Below are positions 12,970 to 43,010 of a DNA stretch of 43,083 nucleotides, piece after piece. The stretch lies in the NCBI GenBank assembly GCA_038046625.1, contig JBBSVV010000005.1, forward strand, positions 7,103-50,185. Direction: 5' to 3'. The DNA comes from an archaeon. Its GTDB lineage: Archaea; Iainarchaeota; Iainarchaeia; Iainarchaeales; Iainarchaeaceae. Within the stretch, counting starts at the first letter, position 1. The number at the start of each line of letters is the position of its first letter. The notes beneath the pieces were generated by a model that was given only the letters and a program-made list of their open reading frames with translations, searched no databases and was not told the origin of the DNA. A program made the translations under genes and the position numbers.

Positions 12970-12974
12970 TTTCC

Positions 12975-19410: not shown

Positions 19411-19922
19411 GCAAAACCCTCTTTTTCAAGCGCCCTCAGCACCTGTGAAACCGATTCCGCAACCGAAGCGTTTCCCGTGTCAAAAACCAAGTCTGCGGCT
19501 TCCTCATAAAATTTTTTCCTTTGCTCCAGCAAATGTCTTACCTCTTCAAATTGCCCCTTTTCCGTCAATGCAGGCCTGTTGGAATCTCTCCCAATGCGCG
19601 AATAAATCTTTTCAGCGGAAGCCGTCAGTAATACTATTTTTGAATTCTTTTTAAGGCTATCAATGTTCTCCCTGAACAGCACAACACCTCCTCCGCACGC
19701 GATGCACTGGTTATCCCTGGTAGAAACCTCCTTTACTACCATTTTCTCAATCTCCCTGAATTTCTCTTCTCCAGAGGCCTCAAAAATTTTCGGAATGCTC
19801 TTTCCAGCCTTTTCCGCTATGAGCTCATCAGTGTCCACAAAACGCAGTTTGAGCCTTTTAGCCAGCGCCCTTGCCAAGGTGGTTTTTCCAGTGCCCCTAA
19901 AGCCAATAAATGCAATGTTCAT
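19407..19922 (-). CDS. aroK: shikimate kinase, AroK (P-loop, bacterial) type
   Basis: 171 aa with Walker A GFRGTGKTT, DTD and ACGGGVV motifs. ATGA overlaps at both ends. Confidence 0.9.
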   Translation of the reverse strand: MNIAFIGFRGTGKTTLARALAKRLKLRFVDTDELIAEKAGKSIPKIFEASGEEKFREIEKMVVKEVSTRDNQCIACGGGVVLFRENIDSLKKNSKIVLLTASAEKIYSRIGRDSNRPALTEKGQFEEVRHLLEQRKKFYEEAADLVFDTGNASVAESVSQVLRALEKEGFA

Positions 19923-21184
19923 TCTTTCCCCTCATAAGCATTTTCGAGTTCCCCGAAAAAATTTGGAAAACTCTTTGAAACAACTTTTTCATCATCAATA
20001 ATCATTCCGCCGGTTTTCAGGCCCAGAACCGAGAATGCCATTGCAATCCTGTGGTCATTAAAAGAATTAATCGCTGTGCCATGCGGTTTTCCGCCGTCAA
20101 TTTCGAGAAAATCCGCGCCATACCTGCACTTCACTCCGCATTTCTCCAGATTTTTCGCCACGCTCTCGATGCGGTTGCTCTCCTTTGCCGCGAGATGAGA
20201 AATTCCCGTTATTTTGGTTTTGCCTTTTGCAACAGCCGCGACAACAGCAATGCTTGGAACAATGTCAGGGCAATCGGCCATGTCAACGCCTATCCCTTTC
20301 ATCGGCTTTCCCTTCACTTCAATAAAATCCTTTCCTTTCTTCAGGGAGCAACCCATTTTCGAAACCAAATCCAAAAACTTTTTGTCCCCCTGGCTCGAGT
20401 AAGGATTCAAGTTATTCACCTTGGCCTTTCCTCCTGTTATTGCTGCGGCCGCAAAAAAATACGAAGCCGAACTGTAATCCCCCTCAATCTCATAATCCTG
20501 TGCCTTGTACATTTCCTTTCCCTTCACAAAAAACTCCGTGTAATCATGGTTCACGCATAAAACACCGAAAGATTTCATGCAGTCAATGGTGATGTCCACA
20601 TAAGGCCCCGATTTCAATTCCCCTGAAACCTTTGCAAGCACGCCCTTTTCCGTGTAAGGCGCCGAAACCAGGATTGCGCTCAAAAACTGCGAACTTTCAG
20701 ATCCCTCAACAATCGTTTTTCCCCCTTCAAGGCCTCCGCCCTTTACCTTTACAGGAAAAGAGCCGTTCTCCGAAGCGGAAGCCTCAGCACCGAGCTTTTC
20801 CAAAGCAGAAACAAGTCCCGAAACAGGCCTCTCCTTGAGCCTCGCATCACCCGTAATCACTGAATTTCCGTTTGCGAGCGCAGCCAAGGGAACGAGAAAG
20901 CGCGCAGTTACCCCTGAATTGCCGACAAAAACCTCTTTGTGCGGAGCAACCAGCTTTCCTGCGGTGCCATGAACTATGAAATCCTTTCCATCAAAATCAA
21001 TGCGTGCGCCGAACAAAGCAAGTGCATTCGCCGCGTGCCTCTGGTCATCCGCATAAAGCGCATTCCGCAAAAAACTTTTTCCATCCGCAAGCGAAGCAAT
21101 GAAAAGAGCCCTCAATGTATGGGCCTTCGATGGAGGCGCATTGAAAACGGCATTCAGCTTTTTCACTGCATCTATTTTCCTCAT
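19919..21184 (-). CDS. aroA: 3-phosphoshikimate 1-carboxyvinyltransferase (EPSP synthase)
   Basis: 421 aa with PPSKAHTLRAL, KESNRI and DHRIAMAF motifs. Confidence 0.95.
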   Translation of the reverse strand: MRKIDAVKKLNAVFNAPPSKAHTLRALFIASLADGKSFLRNALYADDQRHAANALALFGARIDFDGKDFIVHGTAGKLVAPHKEVFVGNSGVTARFLVPLAALANGNSVITGDARLKERPVSGLVSALEKLGAEASASENGSFPVKVKGGGLEGGKTIVEGSESSQFLSAILVSAPYTEKGVLAKVSGELKSGPYVDITIDCMKSFGVLCVNHDYTEFFVKGKEMYKAQDYEIEGDYSSASYFFAAAAITGGKAKVNNLNPYSSQGDKKFLDLVSKMGCSLKKGKDFIEVKGKPMKGIGVDMADCPDIVPSIAVVAAVAKGKTKITGISHLAAKESNRIESVAKNLEKCGVKCRYGADFLEIDGGKPHGTAINSFNDHRIAMAFSVLGLKTGGMIIDDEKVVSKSFPNFFGELENAYEGKE

Positions 21185-21275
21185 TTTCTCACCTCACCGT
21201 TTTCCCTCTTCGAGGACTTCGCGACCGGCGGTACCGACAGCATACCCTTCGGGTACACTTGGCTTCGCACTGCAA
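21185..21275 (-). repeat. stop/start-bridging intercistronic element, copy B (trpA|aroA)
   Basis: 91 nt. Hairpin GTACCC-GAA-GGGTAT (21242-21256) and CCTC-GAA-GAGG (21205-21215). The 32-codon mini-ORF 21181-21279 is bounded by ATGA overlaps, and the 3' end repeats the trpA 3' end (GGTGA..AAATGA). Confidence 0.75.
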
Positions 21276-22091
21276 TCATTTCATCACCGTTGCAGCCTTG
21301 AGTTTCGCGCAAAAATCCTTCAATTCCAAAATCATTGCGCCTTCATTCCCAAGGTTCCTCTCAATCACCGCCTCAATTGCGGAACCCACAATGGCGCCGT
21401 CGGCCCCCGCAGAAATTATTTTCTTCACGTGCTCAGGCATTGAAATCCCGAAGCCGATGCATGCGGGCAACTTTGAATTTTTTTTCACGCGCCCCGCGAG
21501 TTCCAATGCAGAATCCTTTATGTCCTTCCTTTCCCCTGTAACCCCGAGCAGGCCAACCACATACATGAAACCGCCCGCTTTTTTCGAAATTTCCCTTATC
21601 CTCTTGTCGCTTGTCGTGGGGGCAACCATAAAAATCATTTTCAAGCCAATCTCCGTGGCCTCTTTCAATGCTTCGCGTGATTCCTCGATAGGCATGTCAG
21701 CAATGAGAATCCCGTCAACGCCGGCTTCCTTCGCCTTAACCAAAAAATCCTTTACGCCATTCGAGTAGACAAGATTGTAATACAAAAGCAGGCCTATCGG
21801 GATTTCGCTGTTCTTTGCCCTTATGCCTTTTATTATTTCAAAGCACTTGTCCGGGTTGATTCCTGCATCCAATGCGCGCTGGTCCGCAGCCTGGATTCTC
21901 TTTCCATCCGCAATGGGGTCGGAAAAAGGGAAACCGAGCTCGAGAGCATCGGCACTTTCAAGGAGCGTTTCCACGATTTTTTTTGAGGCATTGAAATCAG
22001 GGTCGCCGAGAACCACAAAAGGAATGAATGCGCCTTCATTTTTTCCCCTTAATTTTCCAAACATTTTTCCGTAGCGGTCCATATAATTCAC
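21276..22091 (-). CDS. trpA: tryptophan synthase alpha chain
   Basis: 271 aa with ELGFPFSDPIADG and CIGFGIS motifs. Confidence 0.95.
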   Translation of the reverse strand: MNYMDRYGKMFGKLRGKNEGAFIPFVVLGDPDFNASKKIVETLLESADALELGFPFSDPIADGKRIQAADQRALDAGINPDKCFEIIKGIRAKNSEIPIGLLLYYNLVYSNGVKDFLVKAKEAGVDGILIADMPIEESREALKEATEIGLKMIFMVAPTTSDKRIREISKKAGGFMYVVGLLGVTGERKDIKDSALELAGRVKKNSKLPACIGFGISMPEHVKKIISAGADGAIVGSAIEAVIERNLGNEGAMILELKDFCAKLKAATVMK

Positions 22092-23273
22092 CTATTTGCC
22101 CTCCAGTGCTTTTGCCACGTGCTCGAGGTCCTTGTCGCCCCTTCCGGACAAATTAATTATGACCACGTCCTTTTTCGAGCAGTTCTTCGCGTACTTCAAT
22201 GCATACGCAACGGCGTGGCTCGACTCCAATGCAGGAATAATCCCTTCCTTTTCGGAAAGCAATTTGAATGCGGCGAGCGCCTCGGTATCCGTCGCGTAAA
22301 AATACTTCGCCCTCTTCAAATCGCGCAGCATCGCGTGCTCCGGCCCCACGGCGGAATAGTCAAGGCCAGCGGAAATCGAGTGCGTGTTGTAAATCTGGCC
22401 GAACCTGTCCTGCAATACATAAGTGAGGGTTCCATGCAATACTCCTTTGCGCCCAAGCTTCGGGTCGGCAAAACGAGCGGCATGCTTTCCGCTTTCGATT
22501 CCCATTCCGCCTGCCTCAACCCCGATGAGTTCCACTTTCTTGTCCTTCACGAACTCCCTGAAAATCCCTATTGCGTTGCTCCCGCCGCCGACACACGCAA
22601 TAATGGCTTTCGGCAGCTTCCCCTCTTTTTTAAGGATTTGCTTTCTTGCCTCTTTCCCTATTACGCTCTGGAAATGCGCAACCATGGATGGGTAAGGGTG
22701 CGGCCCCAAAACAGAACCAAGGAGATAATGGGTATCCTGAACATTCGCTGTCCAGTCGCGTAGCGCCTCATTTATCGCGTCCTTCAATGTTTTGCTTCCG
22801 CTCGAAACAGGAATCACTTTTGCGCCGGCCAATTTCATCCTGAAAACATTGGGCCTCTGCCTTTCAATGTCAACCTCACCCATGTAAATCTCGCATTTCA
22901 GGCCAAGTTTTGCGCACGCAATGGCAGTGGCAACTCCGTGCTGCCCCGCGCCTGTTTCCGCGATGATTCTTTTTTTGCCCATGTACTTCGCGAGCAAAGC
23001 CTGCCCAAGGGCGTTGTTGATTTTATGCGCCCCGGTATGCGCAAGATCCTCACGCTTTAAATAAATTCTGCATCCGAGTTCCCTGCTCAACTCAGAGGCG
23101 AAAGTCAACGGAGTAGGCCTTCCAACAAAACTCGCGAGCAATTCATTAAGTTCCGCATTGAATTTTTTGTCCTTGCGGGACTTTTCAAATGCCGCTTCGA
23201 GTTCCTTCACTGCGGGCATCAGTGTTTCAGGGACAAACTGGCCGCCGTAAGAACCGAACATCCCCTTCCTCAT
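22092..23273 (-). CDS. trpB: tryptophan synthase beta chain
   Basis: 393 aa with HTGAHKINN and GGGSNAIG motifs. Confidence 0.95.
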
Positions 23274-24655
23274 TTTTTACCCACCGCACTTTGAATGAAT
23301 TCCCTCATTTTCGCGTAATTTTTTACGCCCGGCCTCGCTTCCGTGGCGGAGCAAACATCGACAATTACAGGATTGAACTCCTTAATAATCCGTTTCACGT
23401 TTCCCGCATTCAGGCCCCCGGAAAAAATCAGCTTCGTGGAATTAATTTTTACATTTTGCAAAAATTTTTCGTTAATTTGCGTTCCGGTTCCGCCAAACAG
23501 GCCTTTGGAGGGTGCGTCAAGCATTATGAAGTCAGCGCGGAAACTTTTTGCCTTTGCAATGCTGCCTTTATCCTCGACATGAACGGCTTTAATTACTGGC
23601 AATCCAATGCCATTGATTTCACTCGGCTTTTCATTGCCTGAAAACTGCGCCAAATCCAGGCCGACGCGCTTCGCAATTTTCCTCACTTTATTTTTGCCCT
23701 CGTTCACAAAAACCCCTGCAACAAGCGCCTTTCCTTTCACCCTGTGCGCAATTTTTTTCGCCAGCCCAATTGAAACAAACCTCGGGCTCTTGGGGTAGAA
23801 GTTCAGCCCAATCAGGTCGGCCCCGAGTTTCACCGCATCCATTGCGTCCTTTTCGCTTGTGATGCCGCAAATCTTCACAAGGGTTTTTCCGGATAATTCC
23901 TTCAGCTTCACGCGCGGAACCGGAAAGGACATTATGGCTGTCCCGACAAGTATTGCGTCCGCAATTCCTTTGAGCGAGTCAACCTGCCGCCTTGAATTGA
24001 TTGCGGATTCGGAAACAAGAACAATTTTATTTCTCCTGCCTTTCGGTATTTTTTTTGCCAGCCTTGCGGTAACGGCAAAATCTTCCCTCAGCGTGGCGAG
24101 GTTCCGGTTGTTTATGCCTATTATTTTGGCATTCGTGCGCAGGATTTTTTTCAGCCCCGAAAAGGAATCGCATTCAACCAAACAATCCATTCCGAGCGAA
24201 TCCGCAACTTCAATGAACTCGCCGATCTGCTTTTCCGTAAGGATATTCGCAATCAAAAGGATTGCATCTGCCCCGTAATGCCTCGCCTCGAAAATCTGGT
24301 AAGCATCAACAATGAAATCCTTGCGCAGCAAAGGCTTTTTCGTGAATCTGCGCGCGCCCTTCAAAAAATCCAGAGAACCGGAAAAATGCTTCTCTTCGGT
24401 AAGAATCGAAATCGCATCGGCGTACTCATCATAAAGTCGCATGAATTCCGCGAGCGAAGCGGATTTGTTTATGCTCCCCCTTGAGGGAGAGCTCTTCTTG
24501 AATTCCCCAATGAGCTTCATTTCCCATTTTTTCCCCAATGCCTTGAGGAATGAATGCGATGCCTTGCGGATTTTCATCCTCGTAACGGGAAAGCTCTTTT
24601 TTCTGTGCCTAACTTCCGCGAGCTTTTCCTTCCTTACTTTCTCAAGGAAATTCAT
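23270..24655 (-). CDS. trpCF: fused indole-3-glycerol-phosphate synthase / phosphoribosylanthranilate isomerase
   Basis: 461 aa. The N-terminal half is TrpC-like ([19 protein letters not shown]). The C-terminal half is TrpF-like ([30 protein letters not shown]). Confidence 0.9.
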
Positions 24656-25665
24656 GCGCGCGACTCCTTCACGAGCAATTCAAGCTTCTCAAGAGCTTTT
24701 CCAGAATCAATGCTTTTTCTCGCAAGTTCAATCCCTTCCTTTATAGAACCAGCCTTTCCGTTCGCAAAAATCGCGATGCCGGCATTAAGGAGTATTGTGT
24801 CGCGCTTCGCGCCCTTTTCTTTTCCGGAAAGAATGCCCCTGATAACTTGCGCCGATTCCTTTGCATCCGCAACAACCAGCTCTTTTGGAATGCACCCGGC
24901 AAGGCCAAGCTCTTTCGGCAAAAATTCCTTCTTCTGCACTTTTCCGTTCTCGACAATGAAAGCAACATTTTTTCCCGTAAGTGTGGCCTCATCATAGCCG
25001 TTGCCGTTTATCACAACGGCTTTTTTTGTGCCAAGGCCCGCAAGCACAAACGCGAGTTTTTCCGCAAGTTCCGCGCTGTAAACCCCCAAAAGGAAAGTGT
25101 TTGCCCCGGCAGGATTCGTAATGGGCCCCAGGATGTTGAAAATGGTCCTAATCCCTATTTCCTTTCTCGGAACCGCGGCGTATTTCATTGCCGGGTGGTG
25201 CTTCTGTGCAAACATGAAAACTATGCCTATTTTTGAAAGTATTTCCGAGTTGCGCTCCGCGTCATTGTCAATTTTCGCTCCGAGCGCCTCGAGCACATCG
25301 GCCGCGCCGCTCCTGCTCGAAACACTTCGGTTGCCGTGCTTCGCAACAACACAACCAGCACCCGCACACACAAACGCGCTTGCCGTAGAAATGTTGAAGC
25401 TGGATTTTCCGTCCCCGCCCGTGCCCACAACATCCAGAAGGTCGGCCTTTCCCTTGTAAGATACTTTTGCGGCAACGCCCCTCATTGATTCGGCCGCGCC
25501 CTGAATCTCCTCAATCGATTCCCCTTTCATCCTCAATGCGGTTATGAGAGACGCAATCTGCGAGTCAGTTGCCCTGCCCTGCATGATTTCGTCAAAAGTT
25601 TCCTTCGCCTCGGCTCTGGAAAGATTTTTCCCGTCAACAATTTTTCCAATCGCTTCCTTAATCAT
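24652..25665 (-). CDS. trpD: anthranilate phosphoribosyltransferase
   Basis: 337 aa with VGTGGDGKSSFNISTA and KHGNRSVSS motifs. Confidence 0.95.
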   Translation of the reverse strand: MIKEAIGKIVDGKNLSRAEAKETFDEIMQGRATDSQIASLITALRMKGESIEEIQGAAESMRGVAAKVSYKGKADLLDVVGTGGDGKSSFNISTASAFVCAGAGCVVAKHGNRSVSSRSGAADVLEALGAKIDNDAERNSEILSKIGIVFMFAQKHHPAMKYAAVPRKEIGIRTIFNILGPITNPAGANTFLLGVYSAELAEKLAFVLAGLGTKKAVVINGNGYDEATLTGKNVAFIVENGKVQKKEFLPKELGLAGCIPKELVVADAKESAQVIRGILSGKEKGAKRDTILLNAGIAIFANGKAGSIKEGIELARKSIDSGKALEKLELLVKESRA

Positions 25666-26249
25666 TTTTTTGCCCCCTTGGCCATTTTCATTACGTTCTC
25701 AATCATTAATCCGCCTTCAGGCGTAAGAATGCTTTCAGGGTGGAACTGCACACCGAAAGAAACGTGCTTTTTGTGCCGCACACCCATAATAATTCCTGAT
25801 TCGCTTTTCGCCGTGACTTCCAGAACACCGGGAATCTTTTCCCCGGCAAGAGAGTGGTAACGGCCGGCCTGAAAAGGGTTCGAAAGCCCCTGAAAAATCC
25901 CTTTTCCGTCATGGGAAACCATTGAAGGCTTTCCGTGGATGGTTTCAACGGCCTTTCCGACCTTTCCGCCGAACGCCTCAATCATTGCCTGCTCACCCAG
26001 GCAAACGCCGAACAAAGGAATTTTTCCGGAATACTCTTTAATGACTGGCATGCTGTTTCCGGCATTTGCGGGATTTGAAGGCCCCGGAGAAATCACAATC
26101 AAATCAGGCCCGAACCCGGAAATTATTTCCCTGATTTTTTTCATCGGAACATCATTCCTGTAAACCTCGACCCTGCAGCCGCGCTTCTCGAACTCTTCGA
26201 CCAAATTATAAGTGAACGAATCGAAATTATCAAGGAAAAATACCTTCAC
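25662..26249 (-). CDS. trpG: anthranilate synthase component II (glutamine amidotransferase)
   Basis: The conserved domain starts at (V/M)KVFFLDNFDSFTYNL with GTG at 26249, and carries GVCLGEQ and HPES motifs. The ORF stays open upstream to the ATG at 26387 through element D, giving a 46-aa non-homologous extension. Confidence 0.85.
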   Translation of the reverse strand: MKVFFLDNFDSFTYNLVEEFEKRGCRVEVYRNDVPMKKIREIISGFGPDLIVISPGPSNPANAGNSMPVIKEYSGKIPLFGVCLGEQAMIEAFGGKVGKAVETIHGKPSMVSHDGKGIFQGLSNPFQAGRYHSLAGEKIPGVLEVTAKSESGIIMGVRHKKHVSFGVQFHPESILTPEGGLMIENVMKMAKGAKK

Positions 26250-26383
26250 AACCCTTTCGCCGGTTCGCCCTAGCGGGTGCAGGGGGAGCGACTGCCCCTG
26301 CTCCTTGTACCCGTAGGGTACGAGGCCTCGCGGAATCTTTGGATTCTGCAAGGTCGCAGGGCCATGGCTCACTTTGTTCGCAA
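26250..26383 (-). repeat. stop/start-bridging intercistronic element, copy D (trpE|trpG), in frame with trpG
   Basis: 134 nt. Hairpins at 26333-26346 (GAATC/GATTC), 26307-26321 (GTACCC-NNN-GGGTAC) and 26279-26301 (GCAGGGG/CCCCTGC). It starts ATGATTGCG overlapping the trpE TGA. Confidence 0.7.
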
Positions 26384-27985
26384 TCATTCCAAACCCTCCG
26401 CGATTTCAATTGCCCTCAATGCCGCTTTCGCCTTTTTCTCGGTTTCCTCGAACTCCTTCTCAGGAACCGAATCGAACACAATGCCGGCTCCGGCTCTCAC
26501 ATAAGCCCTTCCTTTCTGCAGGGACATGCTCCTTATGACAATTGCGGAATCAAAGTCGCCTGAAGGCGTCAAGTAGCCTATGCTTCCTCCGTAAAACCCG
26601 CGCCTGGTCTTTTCATGCAGGCGTATCAGCTTCATTGCCTCTACCTTCGGCGCCCCAGTTAAGGTCCCCATGTTCATGGATGCGAGGTAAGCGTGCAGCG
26701 CATCCAAGTCGCTTTTCAGAATTCCTGAAACATTGCTCATGAGGTGCTGGACATGAGAGTACTTCTCAATCATGTAAGGCCTGTCACAATGCCTGGTTCC
26801 CGGTTCGCACACGCGCGCAACGTCATTGCGCGCCAAATCAATGAGCATCGTGTGCTCCGCCATTTCCTTCTCATCATTCTTCAATTCCGCTTCATAGCGT
26901 GAATCCAAATCCAAATCTATTTTCCCGTTTATTATGCCTCTCGGTTTTGTTCCCGCAATCGGCCGTATCTCAACTTTTTTCCTTTCGTCCCCTTCCACTT
27001 TGAGGAAGGTTTCGGGGCTGCTCCCCAAAAGTATTCCGGAACTGTTGTTGAAGTAGAACATGTAAGGGCTCGGGTTTAATTCGCGCAGGGCATTGTAAAT
27101 GTCCAGCGGTTCCGCCGAGTATGCCGCAATCATTGTCCTTGAAGGCACAACCTGGAAAACATCGCCAATGAGAACGTGCTTCTTGAGCCTCTCAACCATC
27201 GCGACAAACTCCTTCTTTGGTGTGTCGCTCGAAATCGATATTTTCTTTTTTTTATGGGGCTTCGGCTTCGGGGCAGTGGCGTCCAGCATTTTCCTGTATC
27301 CGTCAATTACTTCTGTGCACCTTTTTTCCTCGCTTTCCATGTCTTTTTCCGAAAAAATCAGCGCGTTGCACACAAAGCTTATTTCGTTTTTTTTGTGTTC
27401 GACAATGAAAAGGTTGTCGTAAAAATTCATTTCATAATCGGGCTCCTTCAGGACATCCTTCCTGTTCTTCGGGAGCTCCTCGAAATTGTCTATGAAATCA
27501 TACCCGATTGCGCCGATCAGGCCGCCGTACATGACAAAGGGCTTGTATGCGGGCTTCAGCCTGAATGCTATTGCGCGAAGCACATCCGCATGCGTTTTTC
27601 TCTTCAGCCTTTCCGATTCGCTCACCGTGCCCTTGTCAATTTTTATGCTTCCGGAAATTTTGTCCGCAGTGATTTTCAATCCGGAGCAGAAATCAAGGGA
27701 ATGGGCGATTTCTTTGAGGAATTTCCCGCCGGTTTCGCTGAGCGCAATCACCTCGAACCTTTCTCCTTTTCCGCGCGCCTTGAGGCAGGGCTCCGCGCTC
27801 CCGATGCTCTTTTCACCGTACTTTGTAACCACGTCGGCGCTTTCAAGCAAAACACAGTTCTTTTTTCTGCCGTAATCCGAGATTTTCGCGAAGAAATCGC
27901 AGGCGTTTCCGCTGAAAGGCATTGTTTCGTACAGCGGGACAATGCTTCCCGGCCTTGACTTCAATAGTTCTTCCGTGCCTTTCAT
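26384..27985 (-). CDS. trpE: anthranilate synthase component I
   Basis: About 533 aa from the ATG at 27985 (MKGTEELLK), with a C-terminal chorismate-binding domain (GAGIVFDSVPEKEFEETE). The track ORF extension to 28099 reads into the tRNA gene. Confidence 0.9.
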   Translation of the reverse strand: MKGTEELLKSRPGSIVPLYETMPFSGNACDFFAKISDYGRKKNCVLLESADVVTKYGEKSIGSAEPCLKARGKGERFEVIALSETGGKFLKEIAHSLDFCSGLKITADKISGSIKIDKGTVSESERLKRKTHADVLRAIAFRLKPAYKPFVMYGGLIGAIGYDFIDNFEELPKNRKDVLKEPDYEMNFYDNLFIVEHKKNEISFVCNALIFSEKDMESEEKRCTEVIDGYRKMLDATAPKPKPHKKKKISISSDTPKKEFVAMVERLKKHVLIGDVFQVVPSRTMIAAYSAEPLDIYNALRELNPSPYMFYFNNSSGILLGSSPETFLKVEGDERKKVEIRPIAGTKPRGIINGKIDLDLDSRYEAELKNDEKEMAEHTMLIDLARNDVARVCEPGTRHCDRPYMIEKYSHVQHLMSNVSGILKSDLDALHAYLASMNMGTLTGAPKVEAMKLIRLHEKTRRGFYGGSIGYLTPSGDFDSAIVIRSMSLQKGRAYVRAGAGIVFDSVPEKEFEETEKKAKAALRAIEIAEGLE

Positions 27986-28038
27986 AAAAACCACAAAACC
28001 GCGCTTCGGCGCCTCTTTCTTTTTGGTACAGCTTTTTC

Positions 28039-28058
28039 CTTTCTCTGCAAAGAGAAAG
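28039..28058 (-). promoter_or_regulatory. hairpin in the tRNA-Trp to trpE spacer
   Basis: Minus-strand CTTTCTC-TTTGCA-GAGAAAG has a 7-bp stem flanked by T5 and A5 that can extend it. It lies immediately 3' of the tRNA. Confidence 0.4.
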
Positions 28059-28069
28059 AAAAAGGTGTG

Positions 28070-28142
28070 TGGAGACAGAGGGATTTGAACCCCCATCAAT
28101 CGGTCTGGAGCCGATTACACTACCAGGTTATGCTATGTCTCC
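28070..28142 (-). tRNA. tRNA-Trp (anticodon CCA)
   Basis: Folded by hand. Acceptor GGAGACA/TGTCTCC, anticodon stem ATCGG/CCGAT with loop CTCCAGA, T-arm GGGGG-TTCAAAT-CCCTC, discriminator A73, no encoded CCA. G1-C72 plus A73 is the archaeal/eukaryal Trp identity set. Confidence 0.9.
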
Positions 28143-28334
28143 AAAACACCCCCTGCATTTGAATTAGCAAGTATAGGGGGATAGAATTCGTATGGGGGAT
28201 TTTTAAAAATAGGAAATTTCAAACGCATGGCTAGCAAGAACTTATTGGAAATTGCTCCAAAGTAAATCCCTTCTGGCCATAAAATCAGTAAATATTGGGG
28301 CTTCAATGTTATTTAAATGTTGCTTTTGGGGTTC

Positions 28335-28985
28335 TCACACGAACTGCTCGGAAAGGTTCCTTTCAAGATAGCCGCTTCCTTCTGCACCTGTTTCCGCAAG
28401 AAAGTACTTAACCGCTGTCTTGTGCGGCCTGTATTCAATGCTGTAAATGCAGTCGTTCGGAATCGAGATTTCCATTTTTTCTTTTGGAGAGAGGCCAAGC
28501 ATGCTCCCGATAATGAGCCTTCCTGTTCCTTGATGCGTAACAACCAGGATTTTCCTGCTCGCATACTTTTCACGAAACTCCGCAAGCAATGGCCGCACGC
28601 GCCGCTCATCAACGCCCTTGTAGCTCTCTCCATTCGGATGCACAAATTCGTATGGGTTTTCAACCTTTTTTTCCCACTCGCCAGGAAATTTCTGCGTTAT
28701 TTCCTTCGGAGTGAGGCCGGAAAAAAGCCCGTAATCAAGCTCAATCAGCGCCTCAAGCGAAGTTGAGTTCAGCCCTTTCTGGAACGACAATATCTGTTCT
28801 GCGGTTTGCGTGCATCTTCGCAAGGGCGAAGTGAATGCCGCGTAAAACTTTTCTGCAGAAAGCTTTTCGCCGATGAGTTTGGCCTGTGCAATTCCGTTGC
28901 CGTTCAGTGGGTTATCGGTGCGGCCCTGATAACGCTTCTCTTTATTGTAATCCGTTTCGCTGTGCCTGCACAAAACGAGTTCCAT
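28335..28985 (-). CDS. histidine phosphatase superfamily protein (phosphoglycerate-mutase-like)
   Basis: 216 aa with N-terminal LCRHSETDYN (RHG-type motif) and a later VVTHQG. It is 1 nt downstream of the DAHP synthase stop. Confidence 0.85.
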   Translation of the reverse strand: MELVLCRHSETDYNKEKRYQGRTDNPLNGNGIAQAKLIGEKLSAEKFYAAFTSPLRRCTQTAEQILSFQKGLNSTSLEALIELDYGLFSGLTPKEITQKFPGEWEKKVENPYEFVHPNGESYKGVDERRVRPLLAEFREKYASRKILVVTHQGTGRLIIGSMLGLSPKEKMEISIPNDCIYSIEYRPHKTAVKYFLAETGAEGSGYLERNLSEQFV

Positions 28986-28986
28986 T

Positions 28987-30003
28987 TCAAATCAGCTTTC
29001 TGTCAACCGCGAGTGCAACACGCTTTAAATCAGCGTAAAGCTTCTCAAAATCAGGGATGCTCAGCTGCTGCGCCTGATCACTTAACGCCTTTTCCGGGTT
29101 GTTGTGAACCTCAATAAGCAGGCCGTCTGCACCCACGGCAATTGCCGCCTTGCTCAAAGCAGGAATCGGGCCCCTTTTTCCCGCGGCATGGCACGGGTCA
29201 ACAATAATCGGGAGATGGCTTAGGCTCTTTATGACAGGCACCGCACTCAAATTCAGCGTGTTCCTGGTCTGGGGTTCGAAAGTCCTTATTCCGCGCTCGC
29301 AGAGAATGACGTTCATATTGCCCTCATTCATTATGTACTCGGCGGCAAACAGCCACTCGTCAATGGTTGTAGAGAGCCCATTCTTCAGGATAACGGGCTT
29401 GTTCACCTTGCCCACTTCCTTGAGCAAATCGTAATTCTGGACGTTGCGCGCGCCAACCCTTATGATGTCAACGTACTTCGCAATCAATTCAACATTGCGC
29501 GGATCCATAACTTCGGTTTCAACAACCATGCCTGTTTCTTCCTTGACCTTCTTTATTATTTTCAGGCCCTTTTCCCCAAGGCCTTGGAACTCATAAGGCG
29601 AGGTGCGCGGCTTGTACGCAGAGCTCCTGAAAACCCTGACACCCATTTTTTTGAGCGCATTCGCAATCTCAAACATCTGCTCCTCGCTTTCAACCGCGCA
29701 TGGGCCCGCAATCATCACGACTTCATTTCCGCCGAATCTTACCCCTCCTGCTTCCACTATTGAGTTGTGTGGCTGCACTTCGCGCGAGGCGCGCTTGTAA
29801 GGCTTCTGCACGGACATGACCTTTTCCACAAAGCTCAGGTTCTCGAGCTTCTCGCGGGAAATCTTGGCGACGTTCCCGATGACGCCTATAATGACTTTTT
29901 TCTCGCCCTTTGAAATATGTGCCTGCAGCCCAGCTTCCTTTATGATGTCCACTACCTTGTCAATTTGCCCCTGCGAAACCGACCTGTCCATTACAACTAT
30001 CAT
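28987..30003 (-). CDS. aroF: 3-deoxy-7-phosphoheptulonate (DAHP) synthase, class I-beta with N-terminal ferredoxin-like regulatory domain
   Basis: KPRTSPYEFQGLG, IGARN and CERGIRTF motifs. The N-terminus MIVVMD... (ATG at 30003, 338 aa) matches, from memory, the start and length of the Thermotoga maritima enzyme. The ORF is open to a GTG at 30066. Confidence 0.9.
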   Translation of the reverse strand: MIVVMDRSVSQGQIDKVVDIIKEAGLQAHISKGEKKVIIGVIGNVAKISREKLENLSFVEKVMSVQKPYKRASREVQPHNSIVEAGGVRFGGNEVVMIAGPCAVESEEQMFEIANALKKMGVRVFRSSAYKPRTSPYEFQGLGEKGLKIIKKVKEETGMVVETEVMDPRNVELIAKYVDIIRVGARNVQNYDLLKEVGKVNKPVILKNGLSTTIDEWLFAAEYIMNEGNMNVILCERGIRTFEPQTRNTLNLSAVPVIKSLSHLPIIVDPCHAAGKRGPIPALSKAAIAVGADGLLIEVHNNPEKALSDQAQQLSIPDFEKLYADLKRVALAVDRKLI

Positions 30004-30067
30004 TCTTTCCATCTCCCTTTGTCCGATGAATTGTAATTGCGAATTCTTAAAAAGCCGATTACGCACT

Positions 30068-31894
30068 TCATTTCAATGCCTCCTTGATAATTGCCCTATA
30101 GCCGATATTGTACTTTTCAACCAATTCTTCCGGTTTCCCGGAGTGCGGAATCCCCTTCACGAAAAGCCTCTTCACCTCTATGCCGGAACCAGCGAGTTCC
30201 GAAGCAATCATTTCTCCGATGCCGCCTTCCGCATAATGGTCTTCGCTCACGACAATTTTTCCTCCATGCGCCTTCGCAAATGCAATGAATTTTTTCGAAT
30301 CGAAAGGCTTCACACAATAAAGGTCAATTACTGCTGCCTTCACATTCTGCTTTTCGAGCTCCTGCGAAGCCTTCAACGATTCATGCAGAGTTATTCCCGC
30401 GCCCACCAGAATAACCTTGTCAACTCGAGATTCCTTCAGCACCTTGAAGCCGCCGGCCTCGAACTTTTCCGAAGCGGAATAAAGTACGGGCGTTTTTCCG
30501 CGCGTGGTGCGGATATACTTGATTCCTGGCATTGAAGCGCACAACTCCACGATTTTTTCCGCGGCAACGGCATCGCTTGGGTAAAACACTGCGCTGTTCG
30601 GCAAAGCCCTGAACAATGCGATGTCCTCGAGACCCATCTGCGAAGCCCCGTCCTCGCCAATTGAAACTCCAGCATGAGAACCACAAACGGTTATTGAGGC
30701 CGAGGAAAGCGCGGCCATCCTTATCTGGTCGTGGCACCTTGAAAGGAAAGCCGCAAAGGTAGAGGCGAAAGGCCTGAAGCCCTTAACCGAAAGCCCCAAT
30801 GCAACGCCGATCATGTTCTGCTCCTGAATATAAGTTTCGACGAATTGCTTCGGCCCGAATTTTTTCACTTCCTCGGAATGCGTTGAATTGCTCACTTCCG
30901 CATCAACAATAATCGCGCCTGAATCAGCCTGAACGAGGTTTGCAAGGGCATTTCCATAACCGGACCTCGTCGCAATTGCGTTCCCCAACTTGTAATCCGT
31001 GAACTTCATTTTCGAGGCCTCGGCCTTCTTCACCGGGATTTTTTCCGGCTTCTGCACAGAAACTTTTGGGAACGGGACATCCGGAATTTCCTTCAATGCC
31101 GCTTCCAATTTGTCCTGCGGAACAGGCTTTCCATGCCAATTATCCTTGTTCTCCAAAAAAGAAACGCCTCTGCCCTTGAAAGTTTTTGCAATTATGGCGA
31201 ACGGTTTTTCCGAACCGCGCGCCTTTTCAAGCGCAGCAAGAACCTCTGAAACATTGTGCCCGTCAATTGCAATTGTTTCCCAGCCGAAAGCATTGAAGCG
31301 CGCTTCATAAGGCCTGAGATTGTGGCCTTCCATTGTTTCTCCGCGCTGCCCCAGCCTGTTTGCGTCAACAATCGCAACGAGGTTATTCAGATTATAGTGG
31401 TGAGCGAACTGCAAGGCCTCATACACAGAGCCTTCAGCAATCTCGCTGTCACCCATAAGCACAAATACGCGGAACTTCCTTCCCTGCTTTTTCGAAGCAA
31501 GAGCCATCCCACAGCCAACCGAAAGCCCCTGTCCAAGCGAACCGGTTGCGACCTTAATGTTTTTCAAAGAGTTGGGCATCGGGTGCCCCTCAAGAGGCGA
31601 ATCTATTTTTCTCAGTGAAAGCAAATTCTCCTTTATTGCGCCCGCATGGAACAAACATGAGTAAAGAATGGGCGCCGCGTGCCCCTTGCTCAAAACGAAC
31701 TCATCGTTGTCCGGATTCAAAGGGTCCTTTGCATCAAATTTCATTTCGCTGAAAAAAAGCGAGGCCATTATTTCCGCGCACGACATGCATGAGGTCGGGT
31801 GCCCTGAACCGGCAGATGCGGTCATTTTTATGGAGTCGCGCCGCAAAACTGCGGCAATCGCCTTCAAATCCTTTTTTTCAGCCATAAAACTCAC
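30068..31894 (-). CDS. tkt: transketolase (full-length, single polypeptide)
   Basis: 608 aa with SGHPTS, GDSEIAEG and GEDGASQMGLED motifs. GTG at 31894 overlaps the pheA stop; an ATG at 31885 is an alternative. Confidence 0.95.
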   Translation of the reverse strand: MSFMAEKKDLKAIAAVLRRDSIKMTASAGSGHPTSCMSCAEIMASLFFSEMKFDAKDPLNPDNDEFVLSKGHAAPILYSCLFHAGAIKENLLSLRKIDSPLEGHPMPNSLKNIKVATGSLGQGLSVGCGMALASKKQGRKFRVFVLMGDSEIAEGSVYEALQFAHHYNLNNLVAIVDANRLGQRGETMEGHNLRPYEARFNAFGWETIAIDGHNVSEVLAALEKARGSEKPFAIIAKTFKGRGVSFLENKDNWHGKPVPQDKLEAALKEIPDVPFPKVSVQKPEKIPVKKAEASKMKFTDYKLGNAIATRSGYGNALANLVQADSGAIIVDAEVSNSTHSEEVKKFGPKQFVETYIQEQNMIGVALGLSVKGFRPFASTFAAFLSRCHDQIRMAALSSASITVCGSHAGVSIGEDGASQMGLEDIALFRALPNSAVFYPSDAVAAEKIVELCASMPGIKYIRTTRGKTPVLYSASEKFEAGGFKVLKESRVDKVILVGAGITLHESLKASQELEKQNVKAAVIDLYCVKPFDSKKFIAFAKAHGGKIVVSEDHYAEGGIGEMIASELAGSGIEVKRLFVKGIPHSGKPEELVEKYNIGYRAIIKEALK

Positions 31895-32955
31895 TCGTAA
31901 ACAGCTTTTTGCGGGTAGCTCCCCAGTATCTTCAGCATTCCCGTGTTTTCCCTCATTTCGTGGAGCGCCTTTTTCACGTTCTCATCATCCACAAAGCCCT
32001 CGAAGTCAACGAAGAAAACGTACTCCCATGTCTTGAGCTTTGTCGGCCTTGACTCGATCTTCGTCATGTTGACCTTGAATTTTTTCAGCGGCTCCAATGC
32101 GTCAAAAAGCGCCCCCGCCCTGTGGTGCGTCGCGAACAATATGCTTGTCTTGTTTTTTGCGGATTTTTTCGGCTCGCTTTTCCCTATGGCCAAAAACCTG
32201 GTTTTGTTGTTTCCCCTGTCCTGAATATTCTTTGCCACAATGCCGAGGCCGTACTTCTGCGCCGCAAGCTCGGATGCAATCGCGGCCGAGTTGATGTAAA
32301 GCGAGGCCGATTCCGCGCTCTTGGCCGTTGAGGATGCGTCCGCGATTTCGGCTTTCGGCAAATTGGCTGCAATCCATTCCCTGCACTGTGCCAGGGCCAT
32401 GGGCTGGGCAAAAATTTTTGTGATGTCCTGCAGCCTGTACTTTGACAAGAGGTTCTGGCTCACATCAAGAGAAATTTCCGCCACAATGTTAAGTTCGGAG
32501 TTCAGGAACATGTCATAAGTGTGGTCTACAATGCCCGCCAGTGAATTCTCTATCGGCACAACGCCGAAGTCAACTTCCTTTTTCTCGACGCAGGTAAATA
32601 CCTCCATGATGCTCGGCTTTGCAAGGTATTCTGCCGCGCTCCCGAACTGCTTCAATGCGGCCGCATGCGTGAACGTGGTTTCCGGGCCGAAAAATGCCAC
32701 TTTAAGGGGCTGTTGTGCCTTCCTCGAAACACTGAAAACTTCGCGGAAAATCGCCTCGAGGCCTTCCTTTGGAAAAGATGTTTTTCCGCTCAATTTCGAG
32801 ATTATTTCCTCTTCACGCGCGGGATCGTAAATTGACTCATGCGAGGCTCTTTTCTCCTTTCCTATTTCCTTTGCGAGTGCCAGCCTTTTGTCCAAAAGCA
32901 CGGCTATTTCCTCGTCAACCCTGTCTATTTCCTCCCTATTTTTTTCCAAGCTCAT
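31891..32955 (-). CDS. pheA: bifunctional chorismate mutase / prephenate dehydratase (P-protein) with ACT domain
   Basis: 354 aa with an N-terminal CM_2-like helix bundle (EEIDRVDEEIAVLLDKRLALAKEIGKEK), a PDT core (NKTRFLAIG) and a C-terminal ACT (ESRPTK). Confidence 0.9.
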   Translation of the reverse strand: MSLEKNREEIDRVDEEIAVLLDKRLALAKEIGKEKRASHESIYDPAREEEIISKLSGKTSFPKEGLEAIFREVFSVSRKAQQPLKVAFFGPETTFTHAAALKQFGSAAEYLAKPSIMEVFTCVEKKEVDFGVVPIENSLAGIVDHTYDMFLNSELNIVAEISLDVSQNLLSKYRLQDITKIFAQPMALAQCREWIAANLPKAEIADASSTAKSAESASLYINSAAIASELAAQKYGLGIVAKNIQDRGNNKTRFLAIGKSEPKKSAKNKTSILFATHHRAGALFDALEPLKKFKVNMTKIESRPTKLKTWEYVFFVDFEGFVDDENVKKALHEMRENTGMLKILGSYPQKAVYE

Positions 32956-33038
32956 TCAGATCAACTCCATTAAATCCTGTAACTAAACAAATAAAACCAA
33001 TTTGTGAAACCCCTTGGGCGCGTCCCCCTCGGAGTTTT

Positions 33039-33140
33039 TTACCACGAAAAAAAGTAAAAATAGAAGTAAAAGCCGATTTTGTCCGCTATCCACTTGAAAA
33101 CCGTTTTTGTTCCGGAAACAGCGGAGTAAATCATGTACAT
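33039..33140 (-). CDS. candidate aromatic-amino-acid leader peptide (33 codons)
   Basis: My own translation is MYMIYSAVSGTKTVFKWIADKIGFYFYFYFFSW*. 13 of 33 residues are aromatic, and 9 of the last 10. An A/T box AATTTAAA (33158-33165) lies 22-28 nt upstream of the two ATGs. The peptide ends 83 nt before pheA. Confidence 0.45.
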   Translation of the reverse strand: MYMIYSAVSGTKTVFKWIADKIGFYFYFYFFSW

Positions 33141-33145
33141 AATAG

Positions 33146-33157
33146 CCCCTAAAGGGG
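33146..33157. promoter_or_regulatory. CCCCTAAAGGGG palindrome (copy Y) between A/T box and leader ATG
   Basis: A perfect 4+4 palindrome placed where an archaeal repressor would block initiation. Related copies are at 13837-13855 and 17588-17598. Confidence 0.35.
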
Positions 33158-33179
33158 TTTAAATTGGTTATCTTTCGGC

Positions 33180-34070
33180 TCACAAAAAGTAAAGCGCGAC
33201 CCCGATTGGGATTATGCTCAGAACAGTACCCAGCACCACTGCGGTTGCCGCATTTTCCGGTTCGGCACCGAACTTTTCATTCAGAATATAACTGTTTATT
33301 GCCGGCGGCATCACGCTCTGCAGAAGAATCACTGAAGCAACTACGCCTGCGAGTCCGAAAAATTTGATGAAAAAAATTCCCGCAACCGCACCTACTGCAA
33401 GTCTCGAAAAAACACTCACCAGCGGAATCTTAAGCGAACTGATTTTCAGTTGCGCAAGCCTTCCTCCGAGCGCAATCAATGCCAATGGAATTGTAGCGGC
33501 ACCCACAGTGGAAAGCGCATTCACGGCAAGCGAAGGTACGTGAACCGAGTAATAATTCAGCGCCACTCCGAGCACAATCGCATAAATCAAAGGTATTTTG
33601 AAAATTGCCGCGAGGCGCTCACGCTTCCTTTTCGAACTGCTCTGCGCAAGGAAAATTCCTATTGAAAACATCGCCACGGTTGCGAATGCGTCAAAAATAA
33701 TCGCCTTATGCAAACCAAGTTCGCCAAATGCAAACAAAATTATCGGGAACCCAAGGTAGCCGGAATTCATGAATGCGGCGGGAAGAAGCATCCCGTTCCC
33801 TTTATGGTTCATGAGCCTGAATGCAATGAACGCGAACAGCCCTGAACAGAGCATGATAAAAATTGCCGCGAGCCCGAGGTAAAAAAAGTCCCCGGGAATA
33901 AGTTCCTTGGAGTAAATTGAAGAAAAGGCCAGTGCCGGCCCGGTAACGTAAATCAGGATGTTTGCCATTGACTGCGTGTCGAAGCCGATTTTTTTGTGCA
34001 CTGCAAATCCTATTGCAATGACGAGAAAAGCGGCAAGCAGCGGGTCGAAAAGCATACAATAATTTAGCAA
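33180..34070 (-). CDS. AEC (auxin efflux carrier) family permease
   Basis: 296 aa with about 9-10 TM segments and the typical AEC N-terminus (LLAAFLVIAIGF). Confidence 0.8.
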   Translation of the reverse strand: MLNYCMLFDPLLAAFLVIAIGFAVHKKIGFDTQSMANILIYVTGPALAFSSIYSKELIPGDFFYLGLAAIFIMLCSGLFAFIAFRLMNHKGNGMLLPAAFMNSGYLGFPIILFAFGELGLHKAIIFDAFATVAMFSIGIFLAQSSSKRKRERLAAIFKIPLIYAIVLGVALNYYSVHVPSLAVNALSTVGAATIPLALIALGGRLAQLKISSLKIPLVSVFSRLAVGAVAGIFFIKFFGLAGVVASVILLQSVMPPAINSYILNEKFGAEPENAATAVVLGTVLSIIPIGVALYFL

Positions 34071-42783: not shown

Positions 42784-42908
42784 CAAAAAAACCTTTTTTT
42801 TCGCGCAATTTTTTTGCCTTTGTTTTCCCGTTTTTTCCCTTTCACTATAACGACTTCTGCCTTTTCTTAAAACCGCGCCCCCAGAATCCGAATTTTTTTA
42901 GGAGTGCT

Positions 42909-42977
42909 TTATGCTGGCAGCACGAGTACGACAAGCATCAGAACAAGCAAAACCGGACCCGCATTGCCTTTAAACAT
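42909..42977 (-). CDS. candidate Leu/Val leader peptide (22 codons)
   Basis: My own translation is MFKGNAGPVLLVLMLVVLVLPA*. Twelve consecutive NTN codons give 6 Leu, 5 Val and 1 Met. An A/T box TTATTTAAAT is centred about 27 nt upstream of the ATG. The peptide ends 125 nt upstream of leuA. Confidence 0.5.
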   Translation of the reverse strand: MFKGNAGPVLLVLMLVVLVLPA

Positions 42978-42997: not shown

Positions 42998-43010
42998 AAA
43001 TTTAAATAAG
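42998..43010 (-). promoter_or_regulatory. TATA-like box for the Leu/Val leader / leuA operon
   Basis: Minus-strand CTTATTTAAATTT has spacing to the ATG at 42977 that fits a leaderless archaeal transcript. Confidence 0.4.

Follow-up and report, generated by a model that had tools for sequence, protein, structure and literature searches.

A conserved aromatic leader ORF ahead of the pheA module of Iainarchaeota as a candidate archaeal amino acid attenuator

In a contig of an Iainarchaeota archaeon (JBBSVV010000005.1, assembly GCA_038046625.1), genes for the synthesis of aromatic amino acids are preceded by a short minus-strand open reading frame (ORF) that ends in a run of Phe, Tyr and Trp codons. 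This locus raises the question of whether an archaeon can control amino acid biosynthesis through a leader peptide read by the ribosome. The stretch of DNA analyzed here, referred to as the window, comprises 43,083 nt (positions 7,103 to 50,185 of the contig). Leader-peptide attenuation is a textbook bacterial mechanism that needs a ribosome close behind the polymerase and hairpin-driven termination; archaea couple transcription and translation and terminate at oligo-T or through a cleavage factor. Literature searches, whose incomplete coverage makes this an absence of evidence only, returned no description of leader-peptide attenuation in archaea. The comparisons presented here indicate that the ORF very probably acts as a sensor of charged tRNA-Phe, tRNA-Tyr and tRNA-Trp. 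With less assurance, we favor the view that it is a leaderless leader-peptide gene that controls the entry module of the pathway by ribosome-mediated attenuation; the entire statement, including a transcriptional output and the regulatory sign proposed below, merits that lesser degree of confidence at most.

An earlier note, made from the letters of the window, had described this ORF with its residue counts, aromatic end and two possible start codons, an A/T box, the motifs AACTCC and GGAGTT and a T-rich stretch, and all of these are present in the sequence and the ORF list. The elements of the leader region and the genes that follow it lie, on the minus strand, as listed below.

33158-33165, minus strand: promoter of the leader, TATA-like box AATTTAAA; its hexamer TTTAAA begins 29 nt ahead of ATG 33134
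33039-33140, minus strand: leader ORF MYMIYSAVSGTKTVFKWIADKIGFYFYFYFFSW and stop, 33 codons from ATG 33140 (sequence and ORF list)
From ATG 33134, minus strand: shorter, more likely form of the leader ORF, 31 codons; the two forms are written together as M(YM)IYSAVSGTKTVFKWIADKIGFYFYFYFFSW and stop
33042-33071, minus strand: aromatic codon cluster, the presumed sensing codons, TTT TAC TTC TAT TTT TAC TTT TTT TCG TGG, ending at the stop codon
33007-33037, minus strand: predicted hairpin H1, AAACUCC-GA-GGGxxxCCC-AA-GGGGUUU, starting 2 nt past the stop; its 5' arm includes AACUCC (33031-33036)
32983-32998, minus strand: T-rich stretch GGTTTTATTTGTTTAG after H1, candidate oligo-T attenuation site, which aligns with an A-run-GG-T(4-9) element of the closest relatives
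32963-32968, minus strand: Shine-Dalgarno (SD)-like GGAGTT, 7 nt ahead of the pheA ATG
32955, minus strand: pheA ATG (sequence)
28335-32955, minus strand: module most likely under the leader (Pfam and gene calls on an identical contig)
31891-32955, minus strand: pheA, with CM_2, PDT and ACT domains (Pfam)
30068-31894, minus strand: transketolase, tkt (Pfam)
28987-30012/30066, minus strand: DAHP synthase with an FXD domain (Pfam)
28335-28985, minus strand: His_Phos phosphatase (Pfam)

The leader contains 13 aromatic residues, and its final ten are F-Y-F-Y-F-Y-F-F-S-W, so that nine of the last ten codons ahead of pheA-tkt-DAHP synthase encode Phe, Tyr or Trp. Nowhere else in the six frames of the 43-kb window are seven or more of ten residues aromatic; the proportion of aromatic residues in the proteins of the window is 7.9%. 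Such segments are rare across about 1.05 Mb of related loci and belong mostly to leaders of the same kind. The description of the ORF as unannotated holds for its name and not for its existence as a gene call, since a public gene caller predicted the 33-aa ORF, without a name, on identical contigs from Hainich groundwater. An exact look-up of ten leader peptides in a protein collection found three called as genes and none named.

Loci around PheA relatives were drawn from genome contigs, metagenome contigs and exact-protein look-ups. They provided 13 aromatic-leader loci, including the window, which together with four Leu/Val leaders make up the 17 leaders compared below. These loci are related to one another, and p-values that treat them as independent are optimistic. 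In each of the 13 distinct loci, a homologous ORF of 28-38 codons with a terminal F/Y/W cluster heads the gene string, and PheA of the leader-bearing relatives is 50-68% identical to PheA of the window. The leader lies directly 5' of pheA, or of tal-pheA, or of two other genes followed by pheA; its upstream neighbor varies, and the pheA-tkt-DAHP synthase-His_Phos module is also found downstream of it in L146-L151. The leader peptides of these loci are as follows.

Window: MIYSAVSGTKTVFKWIADKIGFYFYFYFFSW
L145: MICTFVNRNDSVLDSVVSAFYFYFWFFE
L060/L146: MIYSSLNQESNVLARVKSAIAFYFYFWFFK
L149: MNSIAITRNESVFGRVRAAVSFYFYFWFFK
L147: MHMVAAITRENALQSTAVAIAVYFRSFFYFW
L148: MHSVAYITSKNTVQKAAKAVAIYFNSFFYFFW
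L151: MHSMYVSRQNNALQAAAEAIAVYFNSFFYYFW
L150: MHSISLFREDNFLFRLAEAIAFYFYFYFWYE
L001: MKAVVCGRDYLWTEETASDKAFYYYFAYFFQ
L002: MSCANVFLSEEKDIFSRICTAIADYSAFWYFYFFE
L062: MNCATIERNLFSEFGAAIGSYFAYWYFYFFR
L065: MLPMALAIVPEKSFFESVLQAIAGFFGYWYFD
L003: MQENTFNTAFPTISLPSVANNGFSLFAKFFYFNYSYFF

A single design is common to all of them, namely a TATA-like box, an ATG, about 20 variable codons and 8-10 Phe, Tyr or Trp codons, with the aromatic cluster finishing 0-1 codon short of the stop in 13/13 loci. Aromatic codons fill at least two, and mostly three, of the last four positions in every leader, and a Trp codon (TGG) is found in or near the cluster in 12 of the 13. In the peptide alignment, the cluster is preceded by an A-I/V-A/G motif whose third codon positions vary, TTT and TTC as well as TAT and TAC alternate at aligned cluster sites, and some residues are conserved in the N-terminal half.

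Could a T-rich non-coding tract, either promoter-proximal or a terminator, simply read as Phe and Tyr in one frame, a caution that the earlier note had itself raised? The preference of the leaders for TTT and TAT exceeds that of the window genes, and U-richness itself may be selected, as such an explanation would have it. Chance is nevertheless extremely unlikely, and the comparison between loci effectively refutes it. In 13/13 loci no stop interrupts the leader frame that begins at a TATA-spaced ATG, whereas the other two frames carry stops in 12/13 and 11/13; the periodicity and the length of 28-38 codons are kept, and so is a TGG codon in 12 of the 13; the Leu/Val counterpart is not based on T runs; and the loci are not assembly duplicates, as their sequences differ throughout. 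The earlier note had named loss of the open frame in relatives as one observation that would speak against its proposal, and the frame proved to be conserved; the independent Leu/Val case, which it had cited as lowering the odds of chance, is likewise kept in four loci. From these sequence comparisons, we take the ORF to be real and far from a chance product.

The codon usage of the leaders deserves a separate remark. They favor U-ending codons (TTT 54 : TTC 19 and TAT 32 : TAC 9 over the 13 loci), whereas the genes of the window, to which the comparison is confined, show no such bias (TTT:TTC 279:329 and TAT:TAC 148:177). The bias could reflect selection for U-richness or for wobble-decoded, slower-read codons.

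A TATA-like hexamer is located 25 to 32 nt upstream of the ATG in 13/13 loci, in agreement with the leaderless-type promoter geometry suggested before. Such spacing fits a transcription start at the ATG, and the leader mRNA would therefore be leaderless; by this spacing, transcription probably starts at or beside the ATG. In the window, ATG 33134 is more likely to be the start codon than ATG 33140, because of the MIYS... homology in L060 and because of the TATA spacing (-29, compared with -25 to -32 in the 13 loci). A blind scan of both strands of 21 archaeal loci for a TATA box at -36 to -25, an ATG, 12-45 codons and a biased C-terminal tail recovered the aromatic and the Leu/Val leaders; the few other hits were unrelated, and those inspected were inside genes. 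A 66-codon ORF in another frame (32983-33183, minus strand), which has a GTG start 5' of the TATA box and in which the T-rich tract reads LLLLFLLFFVV, was taken as spurious.

If the ORF is a sensor, what does it act upon? The feature common to all relatives is the H1 hairpin and not oligo-T, which the earlier note had proposed as the signal: runs of five or more T between the leader and the first gene were found in only about 10/17 leaders, whereas H1 was predicted separately in 17/17, starting -2 to +7 nt relative to the end of the stop codon. Compared with shuffled sequences, the 45-nt segment that begins at the stop folds more stably (mean z = -2.6), and the mean folding energy of the 17 leaders is -12.5 kcal/mol versus -5.4 for 186 ordinary long-ORF stops in the same loci (Mann-Whitney p = 4e-9). 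For the window, the minimum free energy of this segment is -14.3 and z is -2.5. RNAalifold, applied to a plain MAFFT alignment of five leaders, recovered 11 pairs, 6 of them with changes on both sides. The same procedure applied to the window and its three closest relatives recovered only the inner mini-stem, with H1 of the window misaligned, and H1 in the window's own subgroup thus rests on single-sequence folds.

Sequence-level support extends to the ORF and its conservation, to the geometry of its promoter and its codon cluster, and to H1 with its position. On this basis we infer translation of the leader, stalling of the ribosome within it, a direction of the switch, and an output through termination of transcription and not through translation or mRNA stability. 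Transcription would begin at or next to ATG 33134, about 27 nt past the TATA box; a ribosome would load on the 5' end, read about 20 spacer codons and then reach the 8-10 Phe, Tyr and Trp codons that lead up to the stop. Since H1 adjoins the stop, the position of the ribosome would decide whether H1 can form. A ribosome covers roughly 12-13 nt ahead of its A site, judging from bacterial footprints, so that under starvation a ribosome stalled at least four codons before the stop would leave H1 free to fold. Under sufficiency, the ribosome at the stop would cover the 5' arm of H1, and the U-rich RNA that follows would stay single-stranded. By analogy with classical attenuators, H1 would be the 'on' (anti-attenuation) fold, comparable to the 2:3 hairpin of trpL, because with so many hungry codons stalls would occur mostly early in the cluster and expression is expected to be switched on by starvation. 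With H1 unfolded, the polymerase would be lost in the untranslated spacer, at the oligo-T of 32983-32998 or via a termination factor acting on the exposed RNA. For the aromatic leaders, the candidate 'off' events are loss of polymerase at oligo-T, cleavage-dependent termination in the long purine-rich spacer, and effects on translation or decay.

Several observations weigh against this interpretation. No such ORF was seen in the relatives L061, L063, L064 and L066, the first of which retains just a degenerate FYYYLYPF stretch that lacks a start codon, so the leader is widespread within the clade and not universal. In 8/13 loci the T tract lies inside the loop or the 3' arm of H1, where the hairpin cannot act as in bacteria; oligo-T is weak in the window (T4, T3 and T3, at least 8 nt past H1) and almost absent in L148. 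Runs of five or more T also occur 84 times within the 38 kb of sense coding sequence of the window. A consensus scan found no GC-rich hairpin with a U-run between the leader and pheA, and the window as a whole shows no excess of bacterial-type terminator sites (31 versus 30.2 expected). In the aromatic leaders, competing folds between the loop and 3' arm of H1 and the next 40 nt do not exceed shuffles or the locus background (Fisher p = 0.83). The coupling argument, in which a trailing ribosome pushes the polymerase, predicts the opposite regulatory sign. Finally, the evidence for attenuation is comparative and computational and concerns uncultured organisms.

The frequency of T runs in coding sequence also disposes of the suggestion that the T5 and T7 runs within the leader ORF serve as termination signals on their own, which was rejected. 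Similarly, an alternative hairpin H2, formed by the H1 loop (e.g. CUCUCUUUUU) and a purine motif (e.g. AAAAGGAGAG), looked convincing by eye in L001, L002, L062, L065 and L150 and was not above shuffles or background; with no supported H2, the classical terminator/antiterminator pair is missing from the aromatic leaders. Searches of the window and 11 related loci against Rfam gave no match at the gathering score (Phe_leader, Leu_leader, Trp_leader, T-box and others) and only sub-threshold noise at E up to 10. Sigma-70-like promoter sites are not enriched in the window (22 versus 16.1 ± 4.6), and none is found at the leader.

Shorter T runs are more regular features. At least four T occur within 50 nt of the stop in 12/13 aromatic leaders, and at least five in about 8. 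The A-run-GG-T(4-9) element of the window and its three closest relatives places a T4-T9 run 8-15 nt past H1; at the T-rich stretch, L060, L149 and L145 carry T8, T4 and T9, respectively, in alignment with the window. Gene ends in the window bear T5-T7 runs. These tracts bring up another reading, in which H1 is a negative element that promotes loss of polymerase at a nearby T tract (hairpin plus backtracking) and is prevented from doing so only by a ribosome stalled on the last three or four aromatic codons. The T runs past H1 in the window and its closest relatives would suit such a function, and so would the proximity of H1 to the stop (0-7 nt) and the aromatic residues in at least two, mostly three, of the last four codons in all 13 leaders. 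With 8-10 hungry codons, however, early stalls would leave H1 free, and the sign of regulation would be wrong; in 8/13 loci the T tract falls within H1 and does not follow it; and the non-regulatory ends and the H1/H2 pair of the Leu leaders fit the classical logic better. We consider a negative role of H1 quite improbable.

The A-run-GG-T-run element itself recurs elsewhere: A8GGT7 is located directly 5' of the leuA ATG (window 42785-42801, minus strand), and A7GGT9 and A6..GT8 follow the aromatic leaders of L145 (6657-6676) and L060 (about 2826-2845). It may represent a bidirectional oligo-T terminator or a weak AU hairpin within 5' leaders.

The sensor could also be the same and its output post-transcriptional, with the stalled ribosome freeing the ribosome-binding site (RBS) of pheA or tal, or blocking the 5'-to-3' decay of the leaderless mRNA. 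Such an arrangement has a precedent in the polycysteine leaderless short ORFs of mycobacteria, in which stalling of the ribosome exposes the RBS of the following gene (Canestrari et al., bioRxiv 10.1101/834739), and the leaderless small ORF as first cistron reproduces the mycobacterial layout (ermC offers a further likeness). No convincing terminator was found for the aromatic leaders, and the SD sequence of tal in L001 is the purine motif located past H1. In the window, AACUCC can pair with GGAGUU, as the earlier note had pointed out (6 bp, z -1.3), but the relatives do not keep this proposed anti-SD pairing: over 14 leaders, complementarity of the stretch past the stop to the RBS averages z = -0.3, and AACUCC is predicted to form the 5' side of the H1 stem. 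Base pairing between the U-rich aromatic cluster and the RBS of the gene that follows was rejected, being no better than chance (mean z +0.4), and the distance from the leader to the first gene ranges between 42 and 192 nt. Taken with the evidence on both sides, a post-transcriptional output appears unlikely.

Attenuation of transcription by the ribosome, the reading preferred here, gains from a second family of leaders in the same organisms. A Leu/Val leader is kept in four loci, including the window, always ahead of leuA-ilvB-ilvN-ilvC. Its elements in the window, and its homologs, are as follows.

43001-43006, minus strand: TTTAAA box of the Leu/Val leader, at -29
42909-42977, minus strand: Leu/Val leader ORF MFKGNAGPVLLVLMLVVLVLPA and stop, ahead of leuA-ilvB-ilvN-ilvC
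42851-42907, minus strand: leader RNA with hairpins H1 and H2; H1 at 42875-42907, starting 2 nt past the stop
42882-42890 and 42851-42859, minus strand: arms of H2, which overlaps H1 and is followed by GUUAUAG
L152: Leu/Val leader MNFNARIRKLGILLVLVLVLLA
L153: Leu/Val leader MNLSNISQVSLILLLVLLLLA
L154: Leu/Val leader MISGGTMAAKILGVLLVVLALLA

In the leuA relatives, the Leu H1 (GCRCYCC...GGGGUGC) starts 1-2 nt past the stop and has a consensus energy of -11.8 kcal/mol with 8 pairs, 2 of which show changes on both sides. The Leu H2 (CGGCUUCUG...CAGAAGUCG) overlaps H1 and is followed by GUUAUAG, UUUAUAG or GUUUUAA; it exceeds shuffles in 3/4 sequences (z -1.9 to -3.7) and is marginal against the locus background (Fisher p = 0.05). 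These leaders appear to show the classical 2:3 / 3:4 layout in part, with a short U tract, and by analogy they would fit the logic of H1 as the 'on' fold directly. They end in non-regulatory codons, and their peptides look like signal or transmembrane segments. One leuA from Woesearchaeota, with just 86 nt upstream of it, counts among the relatives in which no leader was seen.

The operon itself has a mixed character. The closest PheA sequences in contigs chosen as one genome per species come from three archaeal metagenome-assembled genomes (52-55% identity), two labeled Candidatus Iainarchaeum and one 'uncultured archaeon'; the next are bacterial, at about 44%, from Binatia, Lentisphaerae and Nitrospinota. 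Among some 60 PheA clusters with 50-68% identity in a large protein collection, those that are named bear labels such as 'archaeon' or 'Candidatus Diapherotrites archaeon', and LeuA gives the same picture; PheA identical to that of the window is found on the Hainich groundwater contigs. The tRNA-Trp gene embedded in the gene string has G1-C72 and A73, which we take to be the archaeal/eukaryal identity set. The archaeal host suggested in the earlier note is thus borne out by the labels of the relatives, the TATA-box/leaderless promoter geometry and the tRNA-Trp features, all of which point to an archaeon; Iainarchaeota are placed in the DPANN archaea (Nanobdellati). The genes of the aromatic pathway (17622-32955 and 11893-13802, minus strand) look bacterial in type: the shikimate kinase belongs to the bacterial SKI family, whereas a GHMP-type enzyme is usual in archaea, and the DAHP synthase carries an FXD domain. 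Because of these two enzymes and the bacterial origin of the nearest non-archaeal PheA, the data suggest that the whole aromatic module was acquired horizontally.

Aromatic leaders are also found in bacteria with related genes. Four bacterial metagenome loci, with PheA 44-46% identical to that of the window, encode aromatic leader peptides preceded by SD signals, for example MDRPLITKNFGWWFYYYFGGVCPSAKMT and MKGYFGLIRKFTGRYFYFGYYFFNTGLPKVR, so that the archaeal design has a counterpart of a proven type among bacterial relatives. They are located as follows.

L113: bacterial aromatic leader, 139-225
L124: bacterial aromatic leader, 2651-2737
L128: bacterial aromatic leader, about 2760-2819
L135: bacterial aromatic leader, 3651-3746

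These leaders are followed by tandem strong GC hairpins with T5-T7, then by DAHP synthase or AroA'/DHQS-II and pheA. Like the archaeal ones, they have F/Y/W clusters (GWWFYYYFGG, RYFYFGYYFF) ahead of aromatic genes; unlike them, they have sigma-70-like and SD signals, 8-10 codons after the cluster and a GC hairpin with T5-T7, and there is no evident sequence similarity between the bacterial and archaeal peptides. The archaeal leader may descend from a bacterial attenuator or may have arisen anew, now with archaeal signals.

This history bears on the idea that the ORF is an inert relic of a horizontally transferred bacterial attenuator or, alternatively, a functional small hydrophobic/aromatic membrane micropeptide. 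The bacterial look of the operon genes (nearest non-archaeal PheA at about 44%) and the aromatic leaders of bacterial relatives would accord with a relic, and the resemblance of the Leu/Val peptides to signal or transmembrane segments and the partial conservation of the N-terminal half would accord with a micropeptide. However, the leader has been rebuilt for an archaeal host: its TATA box stands at about -29, its start is leaderless, it lacks a GC-hairpin/T-run terminator, and it has been kept down to 50% PheA identity. The element always stands at the operon start, whatever the upstream neighbor, and its composition corresponds to what the operon makes, which holds for both independent families, aromatic and Leu/Val. 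The stop-adjoining hairpin, moreover, is an RNA feature that a peptide gene would not need. Both versions of this explanation together appear very improbable.

The element resembles pheL-pheA, trpL, leuL and ilvL of E. coli (Yanofsky model, PMC4007540) in having a 5' short ORF rich in end-product codons with its stop beside a hairpin, and it shares with the classical E. coli attenuators a multivalent Phe/Tyr/Trp sensing for a common-pathway module. In contrast to classical bacterial attenuators, the host is an archaeon, a TATA box and a leaderless start take the place of sigma-70 and SD signals, and the codon cluster runs right to the stop. The aromatic leaders also lack an intrinsic terminator, a competing 3:4 fold above background and an Rfam match. 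Leaderless leader peptides have been described in bacteria: 14 were predicted in Deinococcus deserti (PMC4007540), and in Corynebacterium glutamicum leader peptides were detected ahead of trpE, leuA, ilvB and aroF (PMC3890552). In those leaders, as is proposed here, the transcription start coincides with the leader start codon, and the operon classes (aro, trp, leu/ilv) are the same, but they depend on bacterial RNA polymerase and intrinsic terminators, whereas the present ones have an archaeal-type promoter and termination signals. The mycobacterial polycysteine ORFs share the leaderless first-cistron small ORF with its cognate codon run, and the mycobacterial 'ribulon' of several co-responding loci has a parallel in the coexistence of aromatic, Leu/Val and possibly Trp leaders; they differ in that, here, neither the cluster nor the segment past the stop pairs with the RBS above chance. 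In archaea, a Haloferax Ribo-seq paper merely called some 5' small ORFs 'reminiscent' of leader-peptide genes.

We tentatively propose, as a broader and distinctly less secure possibility, that Iainarchaeota carry a set of ribosome-sensed leaders (Phe/Tyr/Trp, Leu/Val and perhaps a Trp-specific MARRDLLW peptide beside tRNA-Trp) which would constitute the first case of archaeal amino acid attenuation. It would work through the archaeal polymerase with a single stop-adjoining hairpin and oligo-T or FttA/aCPSF1-type termination, not with a terminator/antiterminator pair. If this is true, gene regulation through the coupling of transcription and translation extends to the archaeal domain, and the leaders provide an example of a bacterial attenuator re-engineered after horizontal transfer. 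A conserved family with a clear sensing module is a concrete, mutable test object for the way ribosome position is signaled to the archaeal polymerase or the mRNA. It also bears on whether small-genome archaea regulate acquired biosynthetic pathways, and on the annotation of DPANN genomes, in which leader ORFs are mostly uncalled and trpE has been mis-extended over a tRNA gene.

How far downstream would control by the aromatic leader reach? The gene order by Pfam is pheA, tkt, DAHP synthase, His_Phos, trpE, G, D, CF, B, A, aroA, aroK, aroB and aroD, so the string described in the earlier note does follow the leader; its control of the whole supraoperon is not upheld, as the trp genes are preceded by signals of their own. 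These are listed below.

28242-28280, minus strand: second small ORF MARRDLLWSNFQ and stop, with its own TTTAAA box at 28312-28317 and the core M[AV]RRDLLW
28070-28142, minus strand: tRNA-Trp(CCA), between His_Phos and trpE (ARAGORN; Rfam 65 bits)
27986-28069, minus strand: region after tRNA-Trp, with the conserved hairpin CCUUUUUCUUUCUCUU/AGAGAAAGGAAAAAG

Because of this internal TATA box, the second small ORF and the tRNA-Trp gene ahead of trpE, and because three relatives (L147, L148 and L150) have the gene string without adjacent trp genes, the aromatic leader probably governs only the entry module, i.e. (tal), pheA, tkt, DAHP synthase and His_Phos, and a separate control region seems to serve the trp genes. 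The core of the second small ORF contains one Trp codon and recurs as MVRRDLLW... in L146 and L149 and as MARRDLLW... in L151. It is a probable separate leader, or a promoter region, for tRNA-Trp and the trp genes, and it may encode a Trp-specific leader or arrest peptide.

The tRNA-Trp gene occupies the same place in five loci (the window, L061 9939-10011, L146 13109-13181, L149 11748-11821 and L151 11910-11982). Public gene calls stretch trpE across it (start at about 28096, 570 aa); the true start is probably ATG 27985, which gives 533 aa, as in L146 and L149. The 5' arm of the CCUUUUUCUUUCUCUU/AGAGAAAGGAAAAAG hairpin is also complementary to a downstream purine repeat, CCAAAAAGAAAGAGG, which is likewise the case in L146, L149 and L151, and in the window a GC hairpin GCGCCGAAGCGCG with GTTTTGTGGTTTTT is also located immediately 5' of the trpE ATG 27985. 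In L061, the segment 5' of tRNA-Trp (9700-9938 of a 1.24-Mb contig) is unlike that of the other loci and holds a 6-codon ORF, MQFVVF and stop, together with hairpins built on the repeat GTAAACGG...CCGTTTAA.

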